Positions 13,845 to 24,400 of a stretch of 64,000 bases of DNA are shown piece by piece. The DNA comes from a virus: positions 1 to 64,000 of the IMG/VR virus record IMGVR_UViG_3300025030_000041; one strand, 5' to 3'. The stretch's first letter is position 1. Each line of letters begins with the position of its first letter. The notes beneath the pieces are model-generated. The model was not told the DNA's origin and did no database searches. It saw nothing but the letters and a program-made list of their open reading frames with translations. The position numbers and the translations under genes were made by a program.

Positions 13845-14037
13845 ATTCCGTAATTTTTACAGCTTATAACAGCACCTAACAAAAATGGCTGCTACAAGCA
13901 TTGGTTTATAAATTGAAGTTTTATTTAAGCAGTCACTTCAGTTAGCTGCAAAAACATTATATGTAATTTAAAAACTCACCATGTGCCAAATTTTACATTC
14001 TCTATCTAATTTAATTTGTTGCTCTTTAATTTTGCTT

Positions 14038-14232
14038 TTATAATATTTCATTGTTAAACTTAAAACTAAAAAGTCCTTCAAATGCATTTCTACCCGTTCC
14101 ATCGTTTGAAAATACAGTATAGTTAGTAAATTTTATATTACTCATATCTACATCAGAAAATTCTTTTTCTAATACAATTTTTAATTGCATAGGAGTAATT
14201 CTATTATCAAAATGTAATTTAGTTGATACCAT
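14038..14232 (-). CDS. Hypothetical small protein
   Basis: ORF. Confidence 0.25.
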   Translation of the reverse strand: MVSTKLHFDNRITPMQLKIVLEKEFSDVDMSNIKFTNYTVFSNDGTGRNAFEGLFSFKFNNEIL

Positions 14233-14494
14233 AGCATTATATTATATTATTAAATAGTTAAACAATAAAATTAAATACAATGTAAAATTAAGAAATAGTT
14301 TTGACATTTAAAAATAAAATATTTAAATATTTTGTAACATATTGTCTTATAATACATTATTTTTATTAATTATATAAGAGTTTGGAGTTTTTCATATAAT
14401 TAAATTATGGAAATACTTATTAAAATGAGAATAAAAATAAAACAATTTATCTTATTTTTTATAAGAGATTAGAAACTTAAAAACATTATTCATT

Positions 14495-15391
14495 ATGGCA
14501 AAAATAACAAATTTATCTGATTTAATTATAAAAAAGTTTGAGAATAGTACTGATGTTAAATTAGTAAACACGTTTGCTGATATTAGTGATTATATATCAA
14601 CGGGTAATTACTTATTAAATGCTCAACTTAGTGGAAGTTTATTAGGTGGAATACCTAATAATAGAATTACGACTTTAGCCGGTGATAGCGGGACAGGTAA
14701 AACATATTTAGCTCTTAATATTTGTAGGGAAGCCCAGAGAAATGGATATTTTATAGTATATGTAGATACTGAAGCTGCAGTATCAAAAGATATTATGATG
14801 GATTTTGGTATAGATACTGACACATCTAAATTATTATATGCTGGAATATCAAATATTGAAGACTTCGGATTACTTGGTAATAATATTATACAAATATCGA
14901 AAGACCAAAGAGCTAAGGGAGAGACTCCTAAGATATTAATTATATTAGATTCCCAAGGTATGCTAAATTCAAAAAAAGAAATAGATGATTTAAATAAAGG
15001 AAAGAATGCATCTGATATGGGAACTAGAGCTAAAGAATTAAGAAAATTATACAGAAATATAACTTATGAATTTAGTAATAACGGAATTACCTTTATTCCA
15101 TTAAACCACACTTACTGTTTAACGAGTGGGCATAATATTCAAATGGGAGATAATTCTTTAAAAGATATTAAAGATATACAAATTGGTGAATATGTAAAAA
15201 CGTTAGAAGGTAATAAAGAAGTAATAAATACATTTAATTTTGAAAATTTAGAGTTAATAGAATTAACTTTGTCAGATAATACAGTTGTTAAATGTACAAA
15301 AGACCATAAATTTTTAGTATCTAGTAATAATGAATTAATTTGGAAAAATGCAGATGAATTAAATGAAAATGATGAAATTTTAAGTATATAG
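14495..15391 (+). CDS. uvsX: UvsX recombinase N-terminal extein (aa 1-207) fused to the N-terminal half of a split intein (IntN, aa 208-298)
   Basis: Collinear with T4 UvsX (LSGSLLGGIP..., Walker A GDSGTGKT, ...LDSQGMLNSKKE..., ...IPLNHTY). At Cys208 the sequence switches to a Hint N-terminal domain (CLTSGHNIQMGD..., block B TKDHKF). The ORF ends with tandem stops TAG TAA. Confidence 0.85.
   Translation: MAKITNLSDLIIKKFENSTDVKLVNTFADISDYISTGNYLLNAQLSGSLLGGIPNNRITTLAGDSGTGKTYLALNICREAQRNGYFIVYVDTEAAVSKDIMMDFGIDTDTSKLLYAGISNIEDFGLLGNNIIQISKDQRAKGETPKILIILDSQGMLNSKKEIDDLNKGKNASDMGTRAKELRKLYRNITYEFSNNGITFIPLNHTYCLTSGHNIQMGDNSLKDIKDIQIGEYVKTLEGNKEVINTFNFENLELIELTLSDNTVVKCTKDHKFLVSSNNELIWKNADELNENDEILSI
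15116..15388 (+). mobile_element. UvsX intein 1, N-terminal half (IntN, about 91 aa; standard split position)
   Basis: Starts at the Cys immediately after extein HTY. Contains block A (CLTSGHN) and block B (TKDHKF), then ends at tandem stop codons. Confidence 0.75.
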
Positions 15392-15417
15392 TAAATTATC
15401 TTAACTAATTAAAAAAA

Positions 15418-15543
15418 ATGAAAGACATGAATACAAAAAAAATTATTAAAAAACGTATAATTGAAAAACAAGAAAAAGTTTTTGATATTGAAGTAAAAGA
15501 TAGTCACCATTATTTTTTAGAAAACGGAGTGATTAGCCATAAT
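15418..15543 (+). mobile_element. UvsX intein 1, C-terminal half (IntC, 42 aa)
   Basis: Own ATG 26 nt after the IntN stop, in a different frame. Classic IntC architecture resembling the DnaE and gp41-1 split-intein C-halves. Confidence 0.75.
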
Positions 15544-16524
15544 TCAGGTGGAATGTATGAAGCAACTAAGCAAGGCGGCGGGTGTTTAATACCAGGGACT
15601 AAGATATATACATTCAATAATGTATTAAAATCAATAGAAGGTGTTGAGTCTGGTGATTATGTTAAAACCTTATGTGGATATAAAGAAGTTTTAGAAACAT
15701 ATACATTTGAAAAATCTACTATAAAAATAGAATTTGAAGACACCACAAATATAATATGTTCAGAAGACCATCGTTTTTTAATTTCAGGAGACTATACAAT
15801 TGAAAGTAATTGGAAAAAAGCTAAAGACTTAGCTAATAATGAAAATATTTTAAAAATTGAAAATAATAATATTTTCAATTTAAAAATTAAAAATATTAAT
15901 CATTTATATACACAAAAAGTTCATGATATTAGTGTTAAAGATGTACATCATTATATATCTGAAACTGGTATAATAAATCATAATTCAGGAAATACCTATT
16001 CTGCATCAACTATTTTATTTTTATCTAAGTCATCTCTTAAAGAGGACGGCCAAACTAAAACGGGAATTGTAGTAAGATCTAAAACACAAAAAAATCGATT
16101 AGCTAAACCAATTGATATAGAATTCCATATTAGTCATATTAGCGGAATGAATCCGTATGTTGGATTACAAGATTATATTAGTTGGGAAAATTGTGGAGTA
16201 GTTAGAGGTACTCTACTTACTAAAAAAGAATTTGAAAAAGATAAGTCAAATAACCAAAAAACATATCATGAATTCGAACACAATAATGAAAAGTATTATG
16301 TAATTCCGTCTGATAAAGCTAGAAATATAGTTATAAGAGACGGATGTAAAGAAGTTCCATTTAAAAAACTATTTACATCAGAAGTATTTACAGAAAATGT
16401 TATTAAAGAATTAGATGAAAAAGTAATACGACCTAAATTTAAATATGATAAAATTAAAGACTTATTATCTAATGAATTAACTGAAGTTTTTGGTGATACT
16501 ACAGACGATGAATCAGACGAATAA
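15418..16524 (+). CDS. uvsX: C-terminal half of split intein 1 (IntC, aa 1-42), then the UvsX C-terminal extein, which is interrupted by a second contiguous mini-intein (aa 56-189)
   Basis: IntC MKDMNTKKIIKKRIIEKQEKVFDIEVKDSHHYFLENGVISHN|S has blocks F/G and a terminal HN followed by +1 Ser. Extein SGGMYEATKQGGG and ...SGNTYSASTILFLSK...GIVVRSKTQKNR...IDIEFHISHISGMNPYVGLQDY are collinear with T4 UvsX. Intein 2 is CLIPGTKIY...SEDHRF...VHDISVKDVHHYISETGIINHN|S. Confidence 0.85.
   Translation: MKDMNTKKIIKKRIIEKQEKVFDIEVKDSHHYFLENGVISHNSGGMYEATKQGGGCLIPGTKIYTFNNVLKSIEGVESGDYVKTLCGYKEVLETYTFEKSTIKIEFEDTTNIICSEDHRFLISGDYTIESNWKKAKDLANNENILKIENNNIFNLKIKNINHLYTQKVHDISVKDVHHYISETGIINHNSGNTYSASTILFLSKSSLKEDGQTKTGIVVRSKTQKNRLAKPIDIEFHISHISGMNPYVGLQDYISWENCGVVRGTLLTKKEFEKDKSNNQKTYHEFEHNNEKYYVIPSDKARNIVIRDGCKEVPFKKLFTSEVFTENVIKELDEKVIRPKFKYDKIKDLLSNELTEVFGDTTDDESDE
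15583..15984 (+). mobile_element. UvsX intein 2: contiguous mini-intein (about 134 aa) with no endonuclease domain
   Basis: Cys1, block B SEDHRF, C-terminal block G IINHN, +1 Ser. The flanking sequence restores the UvsX alignment. Confidence 0.8.
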
Positions 16525-16576
16525 GCAATTAATTTTATAAAAAACCTTAATGAATACTAAAAAATATTAAAATTAA

Positions 16577-17032
16577 ATGAAAAGAAAAATATTATTAATT
16601 TGTTTATCACTATTTTTAGTTGGAAAAACTTTTTCACGTAATACATTTAAAGATACTACAAACGTATTAAATAATTTAGAAACAATACTTTTTCATGTAA
16701 CTTTTTCTAAATTAAATTCAGAATTTAAAAATGAATTAAAATTTAGAGAAGATTTAGTTGTTGGTAATCTAAGTATAGCCGAATTATATTTTTCTAATAA
16801 AAAATCAAAATACTCTAAAATATCATTTTTATTTAAAAACGATATTTTCATAGGATATACTATATATTTTAGAAAAACAAAAAGCCTAAAATATTATAGA
16901 AAGATATATGGCCCTTGTATAGAAATTAGGAAAAATGATAATCAAATAATATGGGCAAGCTCTAGTGGTAAAATACGAGCTATAGTTTCATTAGAAAAAC
17001 GTAAAGAATTAACAATTTTATTTAAAAAATAG
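16577..17032 (+). CDS. Hypothetical secreted protein (N-terminal signal peptide)
   Basis: MKRKILLICLSLFLVGKTFS signal-like N-terminus. Confidence 0.4.
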   Translation: MKRKILLICLSLFLVGKTFSRNTFKDTTNVLNNLETILFHVTFSKLNSEFKNELKFREDLVVGNLSIAELYFSNKKSKYSKISFLFKNDIFIGYTIYFRKTKSLKYYRKIYGPCIEIRKNDNQIIWASSSGKIRAIVSLEKRKELTILFKK

Positions 17033-17034
17033 AT

Positions 17035-17331
17035 ATGAGTTTAAGAAAAAGTGTTCCAATAAAATATCATTTAAATTTACATAAATACCTTCCAAATTAT
17101 CCTACTAAAAATGATTTAATATTTGATTTAATAGACAAATTATCTAAAAACGATAAGCTTAAGTTTTCAATATCAACTATAAACCAAATTTATAAAGAAA
17201 AATTAGAAGATGAGTCGTTTAAAACAAAAATAAAAAAATACATAAATGAATTAATTGAAGACAAAAAAATAATTCAAGACGGGAATTTTTTTATTTTAAC
17301 TGAGCCCCTTATAAATTCATTCATAGAGTAA
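17035..17331 (+). CDS. Hypothetical protein
   Basis: ORF, tightly packed between uvsX and gene 41, as genes 40/40.x are in T4. Confidence 0.35.
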   Translation: MSLRKSVPIKYHLNLHKYLPNYPTKNDLIFDLIDKLSKNDKLKFSISTINQIYKEKLEDESFKTKIKKYINELIEDKKIIQDGNFFILTEPLINSFIE

Positions 17332-17332
17332 A

Positions 17333-17518
17333 ATGAAAAAACTAATAATATTTTTATTTTCGCTTATCCTACTAATGGTAGTAGGAGAAATTCGTTGTAT
17401 TTATAAAGCTATAAATTGCAATTGGGAACCTATTGGCAAAGCTGAAATAATATATACAATGTCGTCATTTACTGGATTAGGAAGTATTGTTGGATGGACG
17501 AATATTAAAGATAATTAA
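17333..17518 (+). CDS. Small membrane protein
   Basis: Hydrophobic N-terminus MKKLIIFLFSLILLMVVG. Confidence 0.3.
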   Translation: MKKLIIFLFSLILLMVVGEIRCIYKAINCNWEPIGKAEIIYTMSSFTGLGSIVGWTNIKDN

Positions 17519-17527
17519 AAAATATTT

Positions 17528-18235
17528 ATGTTAGAGTTTAGTCAAAATATAAATTACCTCGAAAAAGTATTCTTCTTTTATATATGTCAAAGTAAAGACT
17601 TAATTAGTATATGTAATCCTACTTTTTTTGATAATGAGAAAATAGGAATTACTTTTAAAATAGTTAAATCATTTACTGAAAAATATGAGAAGCCCCCATC
17701 TTCAAATCAAGTTAAACAAATTATAAAATTAAAGGGGTTTGAAATAACTGACCAAGATATTGATTTATTATATAGTGTAAATTTAGATGAATATGACCCG
17801 TCATGGTTAGAAGAATATACTAATACATTTTTATTACTTCGTAATTTAAATGTAAATATGATAGATCTTCTTACATATTTAAAAACTACTACAATAACTC
17901 CAAGTAATATTCAAGAAGTAGTTGATTATGTAAGGAATTTCGTAAGCAAAAAAATTAATTCTAATGTAGTTATTGGTAAAGAAGATGGACTAGACTTTTC
18001 TAAAGTAGAAGACCATTACCAACTTACAAAAACTAATAAATTTTCTACTGGATATACTTACTTCGACAAAGTCCTCGGAGGAGGTTGGGAGAAGAAAACT
18101 TTTAACGTTACAATGGCGCGTCCAAAATTAGGTAAGTGTTTTTTAGGAAATACTATGATTAAAATAAGAAATAAAAAAACTAATATAATTCAAGAAATAT
18201 CAATAGAAGATTTTTATAAATTAATAAAAAAATAA
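17528..18235 (+). CDS. 41: gp41 DnaB-like replicative helicase, N-terminal extein (aa 1-203, ending in the P-loop ARPKLGK), fused to a short IntN (32 aa) of an atypically split intein
   Basis: ...YFDKVLGGGWEKKTFNVTMARPKLGK aligns with T4 gp41 ...LNKITKGGAETGTLNVLMAGVNVGK. It is then followed by CFLGNTMIKIRNKKTNIIQEISIEDFYKLIKK (Hint block A only) and a stop. Confidence 0.8.
   Translation: MLEFSQNINYLEKVFFFYICQSKDLISICNPTFFDNEKIGITFKIVKSFTEKYEKPPSSNQVKQIIKLKGFEITDQDIDLLYSVNLDEYDPSWLEEYTNTFLLLRNLNVNMIDLLTYLKTTTITPSNIQEVVDYVRNFVSKKINSNVVIGKEDGLDFSKVEDHYQLTKTNKFSTGYTYFDKVLGGGWEKKTFNVTMARPKLGKCFLGNTMIKIRNKKTNIIQEISIEDFYKLIKK
18137..18232 (+). mobile_element. gp41 split intein, N-terminal fragment (IntN, 32 aa; atypical split site before block B)
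   Basis: Cys immediately after the Walker A GK, at the canonical DnaB/gp41 P-loop intein insertion point. Block A is present, block B is absent. Confidence 0.7.
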
Positions 18236-18300
18236 ATTAAATCGTTTTCCAAGTTTTCCTCTTCCAATTTTTATATAAATAATAAAAAATAAAAAAAGTT

Positions 18301-19470
18301 ATGAAACTTATAAAGATTGTAGACGATGTGCCAAGAATTAGTAAATTTGGTGTATATGACGAATATGAGTGTCAGTTGTGTGGAAAAAAATGTAAAAAGA
18401 AAAATAGTTTATCTAAGCATTTGTCTACTATTCATGGTTTAAACAATAATGATAAACGTAAAGACTATTATGATAAATACTTAAAAGTTGATGGAGAGGG
18501 AATATGTGTAATATCAGGCAAACCTACTAAATTTATTAATTTTAGTGGTTATAACAAATATATAAATACTCCAGAGGTTAATAAAATAAAATTAAATACT
18601 AAAGGGATAACTTATTTAATGAAAGTTAAAAAACTTTCATACGACGACGCATTAATAGAAAGACAAAATATTGTAAAAAGAAATTCCGAAGGGGTTAAAA
18701 AAGCATTTAGTGAAAAAATAAAGAAAGATCCACTTTGCTGGAATAAGTCTAGCATATATTGTAAAGAATACTGGATTAATAAAGGATATTCTAAAGAAGA
18801 CTCTATTCAATTAGCCAATGATAAGATAACTAAAAATAGAGAAAAACTACAAAAAATTTTAAAAGACGATCCGTCTTATATGAAAAATAAATTAAATACA
18901 TCTTTAGACTATTGGTTAAAAAAGACAAATGGAAATGAAGAAGAAGCTAAAAAATTATTATCTGAACGCCAAACTACTTTTAATTTAGAAAAATGTATAG
19001 AAAAATATGGCGAAGACGACGGAAGAAAAAGATGGGTAGAAAGACAAGAAAAATGGTGTAAAAACTATAAAAAAAGTAATTATTCTAAAATTAGTCAAGA
19101 ATTATTTTGGAGTATTTATGATAAATTAGAGGTTTCTTATAAAAATAATAAATCTATATATTTCGCGGAATTATTAAATAATCGTAAAGACGAAAGCGAA
19201 AAAAATAATGAATACCGATTAAAATTAAAAAATAGGGTTATTATTCCAGATTTTTTCATTTTAGAAAATAAAAAAATAATAGAATTTGATGGAGTGTATT
19301 GGCATAATGAACATAAAATAAAGTATCCAAATCAAAACCGAGATAATGAAAAGTCTAACGACTTAATTAATGAGGGTTATTCTATTTTAAGGATTGTTGA
19401 GGACTTGTATTATAAAAATAAAGAAGAAATAGTTAAACAATGTTTAGAATTTATATATAAGGATTTATGA
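18301..19470 (+). mobile_element. Free-standing homing endonuclease gene between the split-intein halves: N-terminal C2H2 zinc finger plus C-terminal Vsr-like / DUF559 (PD-(D/E)xK) nuclease domain
   Basis: YECQLCGKKCKKKNSLSKHLSTIH = C-x2-C-x12-H-x4-H zinc finger. C-terminal IIPDFFILENKKIIEFDGVYWHNEHK resembles the Vsr/DUF559 catalytic core. The position between intein halves matches the 'fractured gene' arrangement reported from marine metagenomes. Confidence 0.6.
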
Positions 19471-19829
19471 GTAAAAATAATAGTGCTATACGTAAATTTA
19501 TAGATTCAATTAATATTGATGAGTACGATGTATTAACTGATACTGGGTGGGAAGATATTAAATCTATTAATAAGACTATAAAATATAGAGCATTTAGAGT
19601 AGAAACTAAATCTTTTTATTTAGAAGGGGCCGACGATCATATTATTTTTGATAAAGATTATAATGAAATATATTTAAAAGAATTAAGTATTGGCGATAGT
19701 GTATTAACTGAAAATGGAATTGAAATAGTTTTAAATATAAAAGATTTAGAATATTCAGATAATATGTATGACTTAGAAATTAATTCTGAAAATCACAGGT
19801 ATTATACGAATGGTATTTTAAGTCATAAT
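19467..19829 (+). mobile_element. gp41 split intein, C-terminal fragment (IntC, 121 aa)
   Basis: Starts with an ATG that overlaps the HEG stop (ATGA) and ends ...ILSHN immediately before the extein. Confidence 0.7.
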
Positions 19830-20690
19830 AGTACAATTCTTTCAAATTTTGCTGCAAATTCAATACGTAATGGAAAAAATGCAGCCGTTATTACACTAGA
19901 GTTATCTGATAGGAAATATATGAGGCGAGTGGGGGCTAATCTTTTAAATATTACAACTGGCGAATATAAAGATTTTGATGAAACTAGAAAAGATTTAATT
20001 AAACATAAACTTGATAATTTTTATGGAATGTTAGGGTGGCCTGCTGGTAATTTATGGATTAAAGAATTTCCGACTGGAACTGCGTCATTTATTGATATTG
20101 AAAATTCTTTGCTTAGGCGTGAAGATAAAACTGGAATTAAATATGACTTAGTAATAGTTGACTATCTTAATTTGATGAAAAGCGATGGCAATTCTAATCA
20201 AAATATGTATGAAAGAATAAAACGAATATCAGAAGGATTAAGAGCAATAAGCCAAAGAAATGAATGGTGTGTAGTATCAGCAACACAAGTTAGAAAAGAG
20301 TATTTTGATAAAGACGTTTTAGGGATGGATGCTGCAGCAGAAAGTAGTGGATTAATTGCAACAGTCGACTCTTTATTTGCTGCCTCTAGGGATTCTCTTA
20401 GTGATATTGCAAGAATAGAATTAATAGCAAACAGAGATGAAGGATATACCGGTAGTTCTTGTAATTTTAAGATGCAATTTAAAAATGCAAAGATGATTGA
20501 GACAAATGAGTTTCAGTATTATGGCGATGAAGACGGCACTAACTTAGAAAAAGAGATGCTAGAATCTTATAAGAAAAATGAAATTATAAGTGCTATTGCA
20601 GGACAATCAATAGGAACTAATATTGAAATACCTGAAGTTAATAAAAATAATAAAGAAACAGATTACGAATCAATTTTAAATTCTATTTAG
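19467..20690 (+). CDS. 41: Long IntC (aa 1-121) of the atypically split intein, fused to the gp41 helicase C-terminal extein
   Basis: IntC carries block B (GADDHIIF) and blocks F/G (MYDLEINSENHRYYTNGILSHN) followed by +1 Ser. The extein STILSNFAANSIRNGKNAAVITLELSDRKYMRRVGANLL... aligns with T4 gp41 SLGLCSLAADYLQLGHNVLYISMEMAEEVCAKRIDANML... Confidence 0.8.
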   Translation: MSKNNSAIRKFIDSINIDEYDVLTDTGWEDIKSINKTIKYRAFRVETKSFYLEGADDHIIFDKDYNEIYLKELSIGDSVLTENGIEIVLNIKDLEYSDNMYDLEINSENHRYYTNGILSHNSTILSNFAANSIRNGKNAAVITLELSDRKYMRRVGANLLNITTGEYKDFDETRKDLIKHKLDNFYGMLGWPAGNLWIKEFPTGTASFIDIENSLLRREDKTGIKYDLVIVDYLNLMKSDGNSNQNMYERIKRISEGLRAISQRNEWCVVSATQVRKEYFDKDVLGMDAAAESSGLIATVDSLFAASRDSLSDIARIELIANRDEGYTGSSCNFKMQFKNAKMIETNEFQYYGDEDGTNLEKEMLESYKKNEIISAIAGQSIGTNIEIPEVNKNNKETDYESILNSI

Positions 20691-20691
20691 T

Positions 20692-21186
20692 ATGTGTTTT
20701 TGTTTAGAATATGAACGGCTTATAAATGATAAATATGACTATTGTATAGATCATGCGTTTGATGATTGTGTATGTGGAAACCTAAAACAACGAAACAAAA
20801 ATGTGTGCAGTGAATGCGACTATAATATTACTAAAAAAGAAATTGGTTTTTCTATATGCCCTTTATGTAATGATGAATTCATTTTTAGTAAATTTTTAAA
20901 TACTGCAATTAAAAATGAAAAAACTAGATTAATTGCAAATTTAATAACTCATTATAGACATGTACATCAATCTTCTTGGAATACCTCATGTCATTTTATA
21001 TCAAATAGTTGGGGTCAATTAGCATACGCAAAAGCTAAAGATGAGCATAACAATCGAGCAAAAAGACAAATACTCAGAAAATGTTTTAATTGGGTAAATA
21101 ACAATGGTATTAAAAAAGAAAATTTTCTTGAATTACAAAATAATGATGAAAAAACTATTGAATTAATTAATAAAATATATAAATGA
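20692..21186 (+). CDS. Cys/His-rich putative zinc-binding protein
   Basis: Multiple CxxC / HxxC clusters (CVCGN, CSECD, CPLCND...). Confidence 0.35.
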   Translation: MCFCLEYERLINDKYDYCIDHAFDDCVCGNLKQRNKNVCSECDYNITKKEIGFSICPLCNDEFIFSKFLNTAIKNEKTRLIANLITHYRHVHQSSWNTSCHFISNSWGQLAYAKAKDEHNNRAKRQILRKCFNWVNNNGIKKENFLELQNNDEKTIELINKIYK

Positions 21187-21443
21187 TGAAATACTATAAT
21201 CAAAAATTAGAGCGAGGCCTTATAAAAATAGGGTGCAAAAGAGTCTGGTTTAGTGATAAATCTGGGTATTGGTTAGAGAAAAATTTTAAATTTAAAGATT
21301 TAAATTTAAGGTTATATATTGAACCTGACCAGAAAAAGTTCTATTTTAGTATAAAGCTAGAAACTCCAGAGCAATACGAAACTATTAAAACTTATAAATT
21401 GACTTTATCTAATGTTAAAAAACTTTTGAAAAAGTATTCATAG
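21183..21443 (+). CDS. Hypothetical protein
   Basis: ORF. Confidence 0.3.
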   Translation: MMKYYNQKLERGLIKIGCKRVWFSDKSGYWLEKNFKFKDLNLRLYIEPDQKKFYFSIKLETPEQYETIKTYKLTLSNVKKLLKKYS

Positions 21444-21498
21444 AGCTAAATCTTTTTAAAGATAAAATAAATAAATAAAGGATTACGTATTTTATCTT

Positions 21499-24400
21499 AT
21501 GGATATATCAAAACTTTTTTTCTTTAATAAAAACGGTGAAAATATAAATTTCACGTTTAATTCGTCTTTAAATAAGTATGAGAGTACTATTTATTTTGAT
21601 AAATTATCAAGTTCTCTATTTGATAATGAAAATCTTTATATTCTAGAAAAGTCCGGTGACTCATATATTTATCCTACTTTTACTGCTACCCAATCCTTAA
21701 AATTTAAATGGAAAACTCTATCTGATAAAGAGAATATCTTTTTATATGATATTGAAACAAGTAATGAAGATAATAACGACTATATTATAACAAAAGACGA
21801 AGTTTTAATATCATATGACCCATCGTTATATGGTGATAAAATTCCATTAAATATTAATATAGCATTTAACCCCTTGGATGAAACTAATTATGAAAGAGTA
21901 TTAGAAATATACTTGCTTGATATAGCTTCACCTGGAACATCCGATTTAATTGGAGAAATAAGTTTTTATGGTGAAGGAATAGACGAAGACGAAAGATATA
22001 GAATATGGTTAGCTAATTTTGGTATTAAATTTAATAGAGAGGATGCTTTAATATTAAAGGATTATGATATAAAAGAGGCTTTACCAAATTGGGAAATTAT
22101 TAATAACAAGCGGAAAGAAGCATTATTAACTAGGCCAGAGGTATACCCATATGTTGGAACATATAAAGGATTGACTAATATTATTAATTTTTTAGGGTTC
22201 AGAGATTTTTTATCAGTAAAAGAGTATTGGCAAAATAAAAACACAGATTCGCCATACTTTAATAAATTTACATTAATTGATATAAGTGATTTATTAGATG
22301 ATGGAAAAATAAATTCTATTGATTTAACTACATATAATAATAACGTTAAATTTACTCCTGAATTTAAAAAAACCGGATTATTAGGATTATATTATAAAAT
22401 AACAGATACAACGGGTGTAGAAGATGCTGACGGAATACCAGAGGTAGTACGAACTACTGAATTCAGCAATGACGAGATTTTATATAAACTTAATAGATTA
22501 AAAGATAAATTAAAAGATGAAATACTTCCAATTAATGTTAAAATTATAGATATAGTTGGTGAGTTTTTATTTTTTCAAAAATTTTCAATTAGAACTTGGA
22601 ATAATAGAGTTGAAATAAAAGATTTTCAAATTAACGAAAATTATGATATATCAGTTTATCCTTTAAATGATACTGAAGCATATTTATATGATCTTAAACC
22701 TCTATTAATAAAAATAAATCAATCTTCTACTAATGTAAATTTCGGAAATTATATATTTAATAATAGCCAGTCAAATCCATATGACTGGTCTCAAAAATAC
22801 CCGCCAACTGATATTCCTTTATTAATTGAATCAATAAAGACTTTTTATAATGAAATACAACAGTCTAAAAAAGATGGATTAAATGAACCATTACCGTGGA
22901 ACTTCGGAGATGAACCTGAAAATATAATTGGATGTCCAGTTATATTTAAAGTTAAGTTTGACGAAATTACATGGGATATATTATCAAATTCAACATGGGA
23001 TAGTCTAGACGATTTTTATACATGGGATACTATAAACTTTAAATCAATTTATGAAATAGAATGGAATATAAGTAAAAAAATCGGAACACCTTACTCTTTT
23101 ACTTATCGAGGATATATAAAAGATTTACATACATTACCTCATTTTTTACCATATGAAGGAGAATATGACGTCTTTGCTAAACTATATGATCTTAACTCTG
23201 GTCATAGCATAAATTATGAAAATAAAATTATAAATGTTAAAAAAATAGAACCTGAAATAATCGCATTATCTAGAATTGAAGATAAATTTGGCGATACTTG
23301 GGATGACTTATCTAATGTAACATGGGATGAAATAGAATCATCATACTGGTATAATCCTATTGTAAACATAGTTAATCAAAATAATAACGAGATAGATTTA
23401 CAAAGAAATTTATACGAGTGGGATTTTTATAAAGATAAAATAAAAGATGCTAAAATATTTAATGACGACACTTTTATATATGAATCCTTAAATACTAGCC
23501 TGCATTCTCTTAAAAATTTATATGGTATACCTAAAAAAGGAGGAAGTGATGTATACGAATGGACATGGGATGATTTTGAAAATGCAACATGGGATGACTT
23601 ATTTCATATGAAATGGTATCATATGGTATATCACTCTGATTTTTTAGCAGGTTTTCTTATTAAGAAACTTCCAAGAAAAGGAGATATTATACAAATGAAT
23701 AAATATTCAGATTTTGTATTTCAAACTACTATGCTAACTTTACAAGATGCAATCGATGAATTGAATTTATCTAGCCATAATGGAATATCGTTATTTAAAT
23801 ATGAGGTTCAAAGTTATCATAAAAAATATAAAGTAACATTAACAAAAAGTACAACTGATTTTACATATGACTTAACGATTAATGAATCTAATATTATATA
23901 TATTGCAACTCCTTTACAAGATATAAATGAAATTAGAGACGCATTGATTAATCTAATTAATAATGAAATTACCCAACATGTTACGGCAATTAGTGCTTCA
24001 AATGATAGTTTTTTAATAATCGGTGATGTGGAAGAAGATGACTATATATTATCAGTAACTAGCCCAAGTTTAATAGATTTTGAATTAATACAAGATCCTG
24101 GTCCATTTATTAGTGCGACTGCAAAAGACTTTGGAAAAGAAAGTTATGTAATTATAAATTATATTTCATCTGGCGATGACGACGACTCTAGTCCATTCTC
24201 ACCAAGAACCTCTAATTTCTTAGAAGGCAACAAATACTCGTATAACGAACCTATTTGGATTTATAATAAATCTCAAATTGAATCTTTAAATAATAAATAT
24301 ATAAGTCTAGATATTGAAAATTTATTTGTTGATGCACCATTTAGCGATATTGCTAATGGAAATACTAATAATATTCAGTATTGGATAGATAATAAATATA

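Follow-up and report, generated by a model that had tools for sequence, protein, structure and literature searches.

Fractured genes interrupted by split inteins were described by Dassa in 2009. In these genes the N-terminal part of a host protein, fused to an N-terminal intein fragment (IntN), is followed on one strand by a spacer of 27-51 nucleotides (nt), a free-standing endonuclease gene, and a C-terminal intein fragment (IntC) fused to the rest of the host (PMC2677866). The EDxHD nuclease family was first noticed in such genes (PMC3239194; PMC2677866). Breakage at the endonuclease-insertion region had 'the one exception', a terminase whose 122-residue IntC carries all motifs but N1 (PMC2677866). 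Atypically split inteins have an IntN of 15-37 amino acids (aa), and VidaL and PolB16 break after strand beta2 while AceL-TerL and GOS-TerL break at the S2 site, after helix alpha1 (PMC13014065). AceL-TerL, GOS-TerL, Cat and VidaL have been biochemically characterised since 2009. In DnaB, inteins are known to insert at the P-loop, which is called site b (PMC4760082). Here we describe a DnaB/gp41-like helicase gene at 17528-20690 of a 64,000-nt stretch of viral DNA (positions 1 to 64,000 of IMG/VR record IMGVR_UViG_3300025030_000041; hereafter the window). The gene is interrupted within its Walker A motif by an unevenly split intein, and a homing-endonuclease gene (HEG) lies between the two halves. 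The locus is probably a working fractured gene, in which the protein halves would be ligated by trans-splicing and the HEG would spread the cassette.

Layout of the locus and reality of the split

The locus follows the order of the 2009 fractured genes on a single strand: host N-part with IntN, spacer, free-standing endonuclease gene, and IntC with host C-part. It comprises three open reading frames (ORFs) with the following features.

17528-18235, plus strand: ORF1 (235 aa), the helicase N-part, then IntN, then TAA
17528-18136, plus strand: helicase N-extein (203 aa) within ORF1, ending ...VTMARPKLGK, assigned by its PHROG 19 match and colinearity
18137-18232 (TAA to 18235), plus strand: IntN (32 aa, CFLGNTMIKIRNKKTNIIQEISIEDFYKLIKK), block A with Cys1
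18236-18300, plus strand: AT-rich spacer of 65 nt between the IntN stop and the HEG start
18301-19470, plus strand: ORF2, the predicted free-standing HEG (389 aa), with zinc finger, helical middle and Vsr-like/EDxHD domain
19467-20690, plus strand: ORF3 (407 aa), IntC followed by the rest of the DnaB/gp41-like helicase
19467-19829, plus strand: IntC (121 aa), blocks B, F and G, ending ...NHRYYTNGILSHN
19830-20690, plus strand: helicase C-extein (286 aa and stop), starting STILSNFAANS, the RecA-like ATPase core

The ATG of ORF3 overlaps the stop codon of ORF2 (ATGA). IntN and IntC belong to separate ORFs in different frames, 1,234 nt apart, and the three ORFs occupy three different frames. A fractured helicase gene had been proposed here in a sequence-only reading of the stretch, and the ORF list, the sequence reads and the junction mapping bear this out. 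The host of the locus is a large AT-rich phage.

A gene in several pieces could also arise from a sequencing or assembly artefact, or from recoding of a stop codon, with the true gene encoding a contiguous intein with a nested endonuclease domain. The nearest named relatives of the phage are Lak megaphages, which are reported to recode a stop codon, and in three related terminase loci (L057, L075 and L086) the intein frame is open across the HEG region. In the window, however, IntN, HEG and IntC are read in three frames. Past the IntN stop, the ORF1 frame meets TAA, TAA, TGA, TAA and TAG within 90 nt, and the long ORFs of the window close with all three stop codons (35 TAA, 13 TGA and 8 TAG). 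Recoding of a stop codon or a single frameshift is therefore ruled out as the cause of the split by the three frames and the mixed stop codons. Proteins identical to those of ORF1, ORF2 and ORF3 are encoded on 5-8 contigs of up to 265,665 bp, which come from three independent sets of assemblies (JGI/IMG, ENA and Logan). The three frames and these identical proteins are contrary to the stops being assembly errors, the outcome that the earlier reading had named as fatal to it. The split is not a sequencing or assembly artefact or a misreading, and a contiguous gene is so improbable that we regard it as effectively refuted.

The two intein halves

The two short modules at the break are predicted, from sequence and structure model together, to be the halves of one intein with a HINT fold. 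Cys1 directly follows ...ARPKLGK and aligns with Cys1 of 59 related IntN sequences. IntC contains block B (GADDH), block F (MYDLEI...NHRYY) and block G (NGILSHN), after which comes Ser+1. In the family alignment A55, D56, H58, D102, H120 and N121 are invariant. The class-1 catalytic positions (Cys1, the block B His, the penultimate His, the terminal Asn and Ser/Thr+1) are all present and family-invariant, over homologues of only 34-55% identity. IntN was top-scoring (59.3 bits, E=1.6e-16) with an IntN hidden Markov model (HMM), partly by construction, the model having been built from itself and 14 related loci.

Fused IntN and IntC (153 aa) matched VidaL (6vgv, E=9e-8), CatC (6dsl, E=0.005) and gp41-1 in a PDB sequence search. 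The AlphaFold2 model of the fused halves had a predicted local distance difference test score (pLDDT) of 90.1 and a predicted TM score (pTM) of 0.83; its confidence is lowest over residues 31-40, at the artificial joint, where pLDDT dips to 64. A Foldseek search with this model returned VidaL first (E=2e-12, TM 0.81/0.86), and the matches after it among the top 50 from the PDB were almost all inteins or intein-like (BIL) HINT domains.

In the case of IntN, the modelled secondary structure consists of strands at residues 7-12 and 18-22 and a helix at 23-33, which runs one residue into the fused IntC. Because two strands and the helix sit in IntN, the natural break lies directly after helix alpha1 and before block B. 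The model thus places the intein among the naturally, atypically split inteins of S2 type (after alpha1). An atypical N-proximal split had been predicted from the sequence, and the lengths (IntN 32 aa, IntC 121 aa) and the break after alpha1 agree with it. The computed net charges are +4 for IntN and -11 for IntC, a complementarity that may be an indirect hint of trans-splicing.

The helicase host and its restored product

ORF1 matches PHROG 19 (DnaB-like helicase) at profile positions 179-366 (E=2e-16), and the C-extein matches it at positions 367-607 (E=2e-36). Since ORF1 ends at position 366 and ORF3 starts at 367, the two parts abut exactly. The C-extein also matches Pfam DnaB_C (E=1.8e-11). 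These profile matches identify the host gene as a DnaB/gp41-type replicative helicase. The N-extein ends with the first seven Walker A residues, ARPKLGK, and Ser+1 is the Walker A Ser/Thr. Splicing in silico yields a 489-aa helicase with a complete Walker A motif, ARPKLGK-STIL.

The intein-less homologues P0132-P0134 (491-495 aa) share 71-74% identity with the spliced product over 100% coverage. The N-extein is colinear with their residues 1-203 and the C-extein is colinear as well. At the junction the intein-less relatives read ...IGK-SAL... and ...IGK-SSL..., and one of these alleles, P0133, sits at L087:6001-7476. The tblastn alignment of the spliced product with the helicases of Lak megaphages is likewise unbroken across the junction, at about 35% identity. 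A total of 357 homologues were found at E<=1e-10; those among the matches listed carry DnaB_C, and many are named 'replicative DNA helicase'.

Among named phages, the best matches of the helicase come from Prevotella Lak megaphages and from further huge phages that are uncultured (30-35% identity), and no nucleotide-level relatives were found in 50,697 phage records. The locus had been assigned to a T4-like replication module. UvsX is encoded just upstream, but among named phages the helicase itself is closest to that of the Lak megaphages, and no close similarity to T4-like or cyanophage gp41 was found.

The endonuclease gene between the halves

ORF2 has a C2H2-type zinc finger (CxxC...HxxxH, residues 22-45) and, at about residues 285-389, a nuclease domain with the core ...PDF...IEFDGVYWH.... 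It matched Pfam DUF559 with E=3e-5 and 24.3 bits (curated cutoff 20.6), and weaker Pfam matches were to MTES_1575, Vsr and zf-C2H2. The finger is a weak Pfam match but is conserved across homologues. At E<=1e-3 there were 739 homologues, many with DUF559, MTES_1575 or ROS_MUCR zinc-finger domains, and several sources name homologues 'very-short-patch-repair endonuclease'. The best PDB sequence match was 3r3p, the catalytic domain of I-Bth0305I (phmmer E=0.0016).

In an alignment of 31 sequences the core ...NNEY...PDF...IEFDG.YWH...E... is invariant or nearly so, and it is kept in ORF2. The family-invariant residues P316-D317-F318, G331, Y333, H335 and E367 are all present. N302, E304, E328 and D330 also match invariant or near-invariant columns of the 31 homologues. 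The AlphaFold2 model of ORF2 (pLDDT 87.7) is disordered over its N-terminal 19 residues. The top relevant Foldseek matches were 3r3p (probability 1.00), 3hrl and 1vsr, with probabilities of 0.97-1.00 and E-values that are weak over the whole multi-domain model. Profile, homologue and fold comparisons together identify ORF2 as a zinc-finger and Vsr-like (EDxHD/DUF559) homing-endonuclease gene, whose product is predicted to cleave DNA. The DUF559 and 3r3p matches, the conserved core and the fold support what the sequence-only reading had proposed for this gene.

A group I intron or other structured RNA carrying the HEG was rejected, as Rfam gave no match at E<=1 over 14000-21500.

Related loci in metagenomes and cultured phages

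Relatives of IntC are encoded on 446 IMG/VR contigs, and the best 80 of these were surveyed as loci in detail. Among 1.84 billion 50%-identity cluster representatives, IntC matches 580 proteins at E<=1e-10 and stands at the very N-terminus in about 128 of the best 150 matches. Among homologues at 44-55% identity, nearly all have the IntC module at the start, and it is followed by one or another of several P-loop ATPases. In all, 329 phage records contain a match to the intein.

In the 80 loci the hosts are the large terminase (about 38), DnaB/gp41-like helicases (19), gp46/SbcC-like SMC_N proteins (18) and, more rarely, a ClpB-like AAA protein (2) and the gp44 clamp loader (1). The 19 helicases are all split at the same P-loop site as the window gene. 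The rarity implied by the earlier reading is not borne out by these counts of contigs, cluster representatives and same-site helicases. By HMM, 59 split loci have a same-strand IntN directly behind the Walker A GK (median 35 aa, range 27-57). With tblastn, 62 loci showed a homologue of the window HEG at some position; in 58 it immediately precedes IntC, and 16 of the 19 helicase loci are among these 58. L079 resembles the full arrangement most closely: its IntN has 30 aa, its HEG shares 40.5% identity over 365 aa, and its host carries DnaB_C. The wide recurrence of the three-part layout argues for selection.

The HEG has been lost and the split intein kept in 3 of the 19 helicase loci and in several TerL or SbcC-like loci, at gaps of -17 to about 400 nt, which raises the possibility that trans-splicing works in the window while the endonuclease is no longer homing. 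It would then be inactive or serve, for example, to exclude competitors, and the locus would be fixed and immobile. Consistent with this, no intein-less or HEG-less allele of the window phage at >90% was found, and there is therefore no sign of ongoing mobility; the disordered N-terminal 19 residues of the HEG model point the same way. Against it, the ORF is intact at 389 aa with all family-invariant nuclease residues conserved. Recent mobility is also implied by the presence of the HEG family in five host genes and on hundreds of contigs. Loss of homing is therefore considered unlikely, and a homing endonuclease is preferred.

The HEG-less loci with the same split intein are L012, L029 and L074 (helicase) and L017/L019, L038 and L050/L082 (other hosts). 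Their gaps range from -17 to about 580 nt, and in lacking the HEG they are like gp41-7 of Dassa 2009.

Contiguous relatives of the intein occur at the same P-loop site in L015, in L031 and in TerL of PhaxI and Kuja. In the case of Escherichia phage PhaxI (gp17, L090:2036-4246) and Vibrio phage Kuja (L091), the contiguous homologue reads ...ARQSGK-CVKGDT...NGFLSHN-TT.... Both are cultured Ackermannviridae, and the intein-bearing gene is annotated just as large terminase.

Other arrangements were seen at terminase loci. In L021:3879-5400 an HEG homologue (zinc fingers and ...IEFDGYFWH... core) runs in frame into IntC with no stop, and the short IntN closes an ORF of its own immediately before it. 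In L057:3750-5966 (near-identical to L060), L075:3762-6632 and L086:3786-6632, no stop codon interrupts the common frame of IntN and IntC over the 540-610 nt in which a different frame encodes the Vsr-like HEG homologue. In the HEG of the window and in 14 further HEG copies, 12-72 stops fall in the corresponding frame. The open frame in L057, L075 and L086 resembles an overprinted linker by which the intein stays contiguous.

A second IntN-like module was found downstream in the same terminase at L005:4028-4126, L015:5287-5376, L018:5595 onward, L057:5877-5966 and L066:5604-5702. An example is ...SLRYVY-CVDGKTKIQIRNKK..., which ends in a stop, and most of these modules stop after about 30 aa. 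This suggests that in several loci the terminase may carry a second intein of the same family.

Taken together, these relatives seem to represent all the stages of gene breaking that the model foresees. The intein is contiguous in Ackermannviridae TerL, L015 and L031, HEG-split in the window and 16 other helicase loci, and split with the HEG lost in L012, L029 and L074. Further stages are an HEG fused in frame to IntC (L021) and an open frame across an out-of-frame HEG (L057, L075 and L086). We tentatively propose, at slightly less than even chances, that the window intein belongs to a large subfamily of phage inteins that target the P-loop and share the consensus KFIE..TDTGWEDI...NHRYYTNGILSHN followed by S/T. 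This subfamily is apparently undescribed so far, and in it the loop after alpha1, instead of the canonical site, would be where a dedicated zinc-finger/Vsr-like HEG naturally lands. If true, the HINT fold would have in this loop a second, independent hotspot of endonuclease insertion, and the subfamily would be a source of many mutually diverged trans-splicing pairs with a short IntN.

Proposed trans-splicing and homing

The proposed working fractured gene builds on the anatomy, homology, fold, colinearity, conservation and recurrence described above. Two products are encoded, gp41N-IntN (203 + 32 aa) and IntC-gp41C (121 + 286 aa). The short basic IntN, with beta1-beta2, alpha1 and Cys1, would dock into the acidic, near-complete IntC to form the HINT domain. 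Class-1 trans-splicing would begin with an N-S acyl shift at Lys203-Cys1 and acyl transfer to Ser+1. The terminal Asn would then cyclise, assisted by the penultimate His, and an O-N shift would leave a Lys-Ser peptide bond. The predicted outcome is a rebuilt Walker A motif, ARPKLGK-S, in a 489-aa helicase. Helicase activity would depend on splicing because neither fragment alone has a complete P-loop.

The most likely targets of the HEG are helicase alleles that have no intein, in co-infecting relatives. It would cut these close to the P-loop codons, and recombinational repair would copy the HEG together with both intein halves. The ORFs lie on the same strand and no terminator was found between the three of them, consistent with co-transcription. 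The ATGA overlap suggests that translation of IntC-gp41C may be coupled to that of the HEG. As to origin, the related loci point to a contiguous P-loop mini-intein, as in Ackermannviridae TerL, that would have been broken by insertion of this HEG into the loop after alpha1.

The 2009 fractured genes have a conserved RNA hairpin and a T4-late-promoter-like element upstream of the endonuclease ORF (PMC2677866), and the spacer is longer here, at 65 nt. The T4 late promoter motif TATAAATA occurs in the spacer at 18274-18281, and over the window it is not enriched but under-represented (32 found vs 46.8 expected). A hairpin at the HEG start is not significant (z=-1.18). A promoter scan gave sigma-70-like sites at chance level, and Rfam gave no match in the spacer, 18236-18300.

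Several points weigh against a working fractured gene. Neither the hairpin nor the T4 late promoter of the 2009 genes is supported upstream of the HEG. At the junction, the spliced window sequence and the DNA of its nearest intein-less alleles are only 55-57/90 identical, too little to derive a target site for the HEG. Biochemically characterised atypical inteins share only 24-28% identity with the window intein. The Thr of the usual block B motif, TxxH, is Ala. Pfam Intein_splicing is below significance on both IntC and the fused intein (E=0.04-0.13), and the identity of the intein therefore rests on the PDB sequence search, the homologues and the structure model. The profile searches proposed in the earlier reading thus recovered DnaB_C in ORF3 and DUF559 in ORF2, with the intein profile only sub-threshold. 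Splicing, endonuclease activity, co-transcription and translational coupling are all steps that we infer.

The block B Ala and the sub-threshold Pfam score could also reflect halves that bind each other but no longer splice, or a decaying relic, in which case the helicase would be a non-covalent two-piece enzyme or dead. Non-covalent assembly is documented for phage genes fractured by an HEG: a fractured ribonucleotide reductase is reported to assemble through interaction domains that stem from a mobile element (PMC3045599). However, the PDB sequence search alignment shows that VidaL, which splices fast (half-life about 1 min, PMC13014065), likewise has Ala at this block B position. Every catalytic residue is present here and invariant in homologues sharing 34-55% identity, and a break inside Walker A could hardly be rebuilt by a non-covalent complex. 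A non-splicing locus is accordingly judged improbable, and trans-splicing remains the preferred explanation.

Neighbouring genes

The UvsX/RecA-like gene just upstream (14495-16524, plus strand) is also broken, by two more inteins, as follows.

15116-15388, plus strand: UvsX canonical split IntN (91 aa), with a 26-nt gap to IntC and no HEG
15418-15543, plus strand: UvsX canonical split IntC (42 aa), followed by a 13-aa extein stretch
15583-15984, plus strand: UvsX contiguous mini-intein (134 aa), after the 13-aa extein stretch

UvsX spliced in silico is 399 aa long and 69% identical to the uninterrupted 403-aa UvsX of a relative, gapless at both junctions. In relatives with an intein-less helicase the upstream UvsX is uninterrupted too. 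The phage has both a canonical UvsX split intein and the helicase pair, and so at least two pairs must work without cross-reacting.

Downstream, a 164-aa ORF (20692-21186, plus strand) starts 1 nt after the helicase stop and is rich in CxxC pairs; it gave no significant Pfam or PHROG family.

Comparison with known systems

The locus is a clean, fully assembled case of an essential phage gene with an uneven split intein that hosts a selfish nuclease gene. For mobile-element research the family-wide pattern is worth more than the single locus: hundreds of loci in five P-loop ATPases, all broken after alpha1 and mostly by one endonuclease family. This pattern bears on the origin of split inteins and on the choice of break point. 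To protein engineering the family offers a supply of natural split inteins that have a short IntN and Ser/Thr at +1. The argument that the window IntN is 'synthetically accessible' is weak, because at 32 aa it is longer than the N-fragments of AceL-TerL (25 aa) and VidaL (16 aa) (PMC13014065), and so no shorter than existing tools (16-25 aa).

The gp41-1 to gp41-9 loci of Dassa 2009 are, like the window locus, gp41-type helicases fractured by a split intein. Most have a free-standing endonuclease gene between the halves (gp41-7 is without), and some have UvsX upstream. Their inteins, however, are canonically split, with an IntN of 88-105 aa and an IntC of 33-54 aa as compared to 32 and 121 aa here. 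The insertion point of gp41-1 to gp41-7 is given as position 356 of the gp41 of cyanophage P-SSM2, and their background is T4-like cyanophage.

The Dassa 2009 terminase is, like the window locus, a fractured phage gene with a split intein broken N-proximally; it differs in its host, which is a large terminase rather than a helicase. The sequence-only reading held that the inteins of fractured genes are all canonically split and that both features are first combined here. This is countered by that terminase and its 122-aa C-fragment: since it has both, a fractured gene with an atypical split has been known since 2009.

GOS-TerL, from the same Global Ocean Sampling (GOS) data and later characterised, may or may not be that terminase locus. 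It also breaks after alpha1 (S2 site) and has a 37-aa IntN, with Ser1/Cys+1 in place of the Cys1/Ser+1 of the window intein at the Walker A junction GK-S. AceL-TerL and its consensus derivative Cat (6dsl) share the atypical split after alpha1, with a short IntN (25-30 aa) and a long IntC (104 aa), and differ in their terminase host, in Cys+1 and in the IntC, which is longer in the window. CatC aligns to the window IntC at E=0.005 with 28% identity, as a distant relative from another subfamily. VidaL (6vgv) is the closest solved structure by both sequence and fold, at 24% identity. It is likewise atypically split and cysteine-dependent with the block B Ala, but its split lies after beta2 (S1 site) with an IntN of 16 aa, whereas the window intein is split after alpha1 with 32 aa. 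Atypically split inteins have reportedly also been listed for T4-like helicase genes of Lake Vida.

Inteins at DnaB site b share the P-loop insertion logic of the window intein but are contiguous and cis-splicing, with no HEG. The same is true of the Ackermannviridae TerL mini-inteins (PhaxI and Kuja), contiguous homologues placed directly after ...RQSGK. For the nuclease, the closest known system is the EDxHD prototype I-Bth0305I (3r3p), the best PDB match of ORF2 by sequence and fold. I-Bth0305I sits in a group I intron and has NUMOD motifs, whereas ORF2 is free-standing with a C2H2-type zinc finger and helical repeats.

In the literature accessible for comparison (PMC13014065), natural S2-type splits are described from terminases only. 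This locus adds a helicase host for an S2-type split, with Cys1/Ser+1 chemistry at the Walker A junction, and also surroundings that are assembled in full, from a phage that is large and AT-rich.

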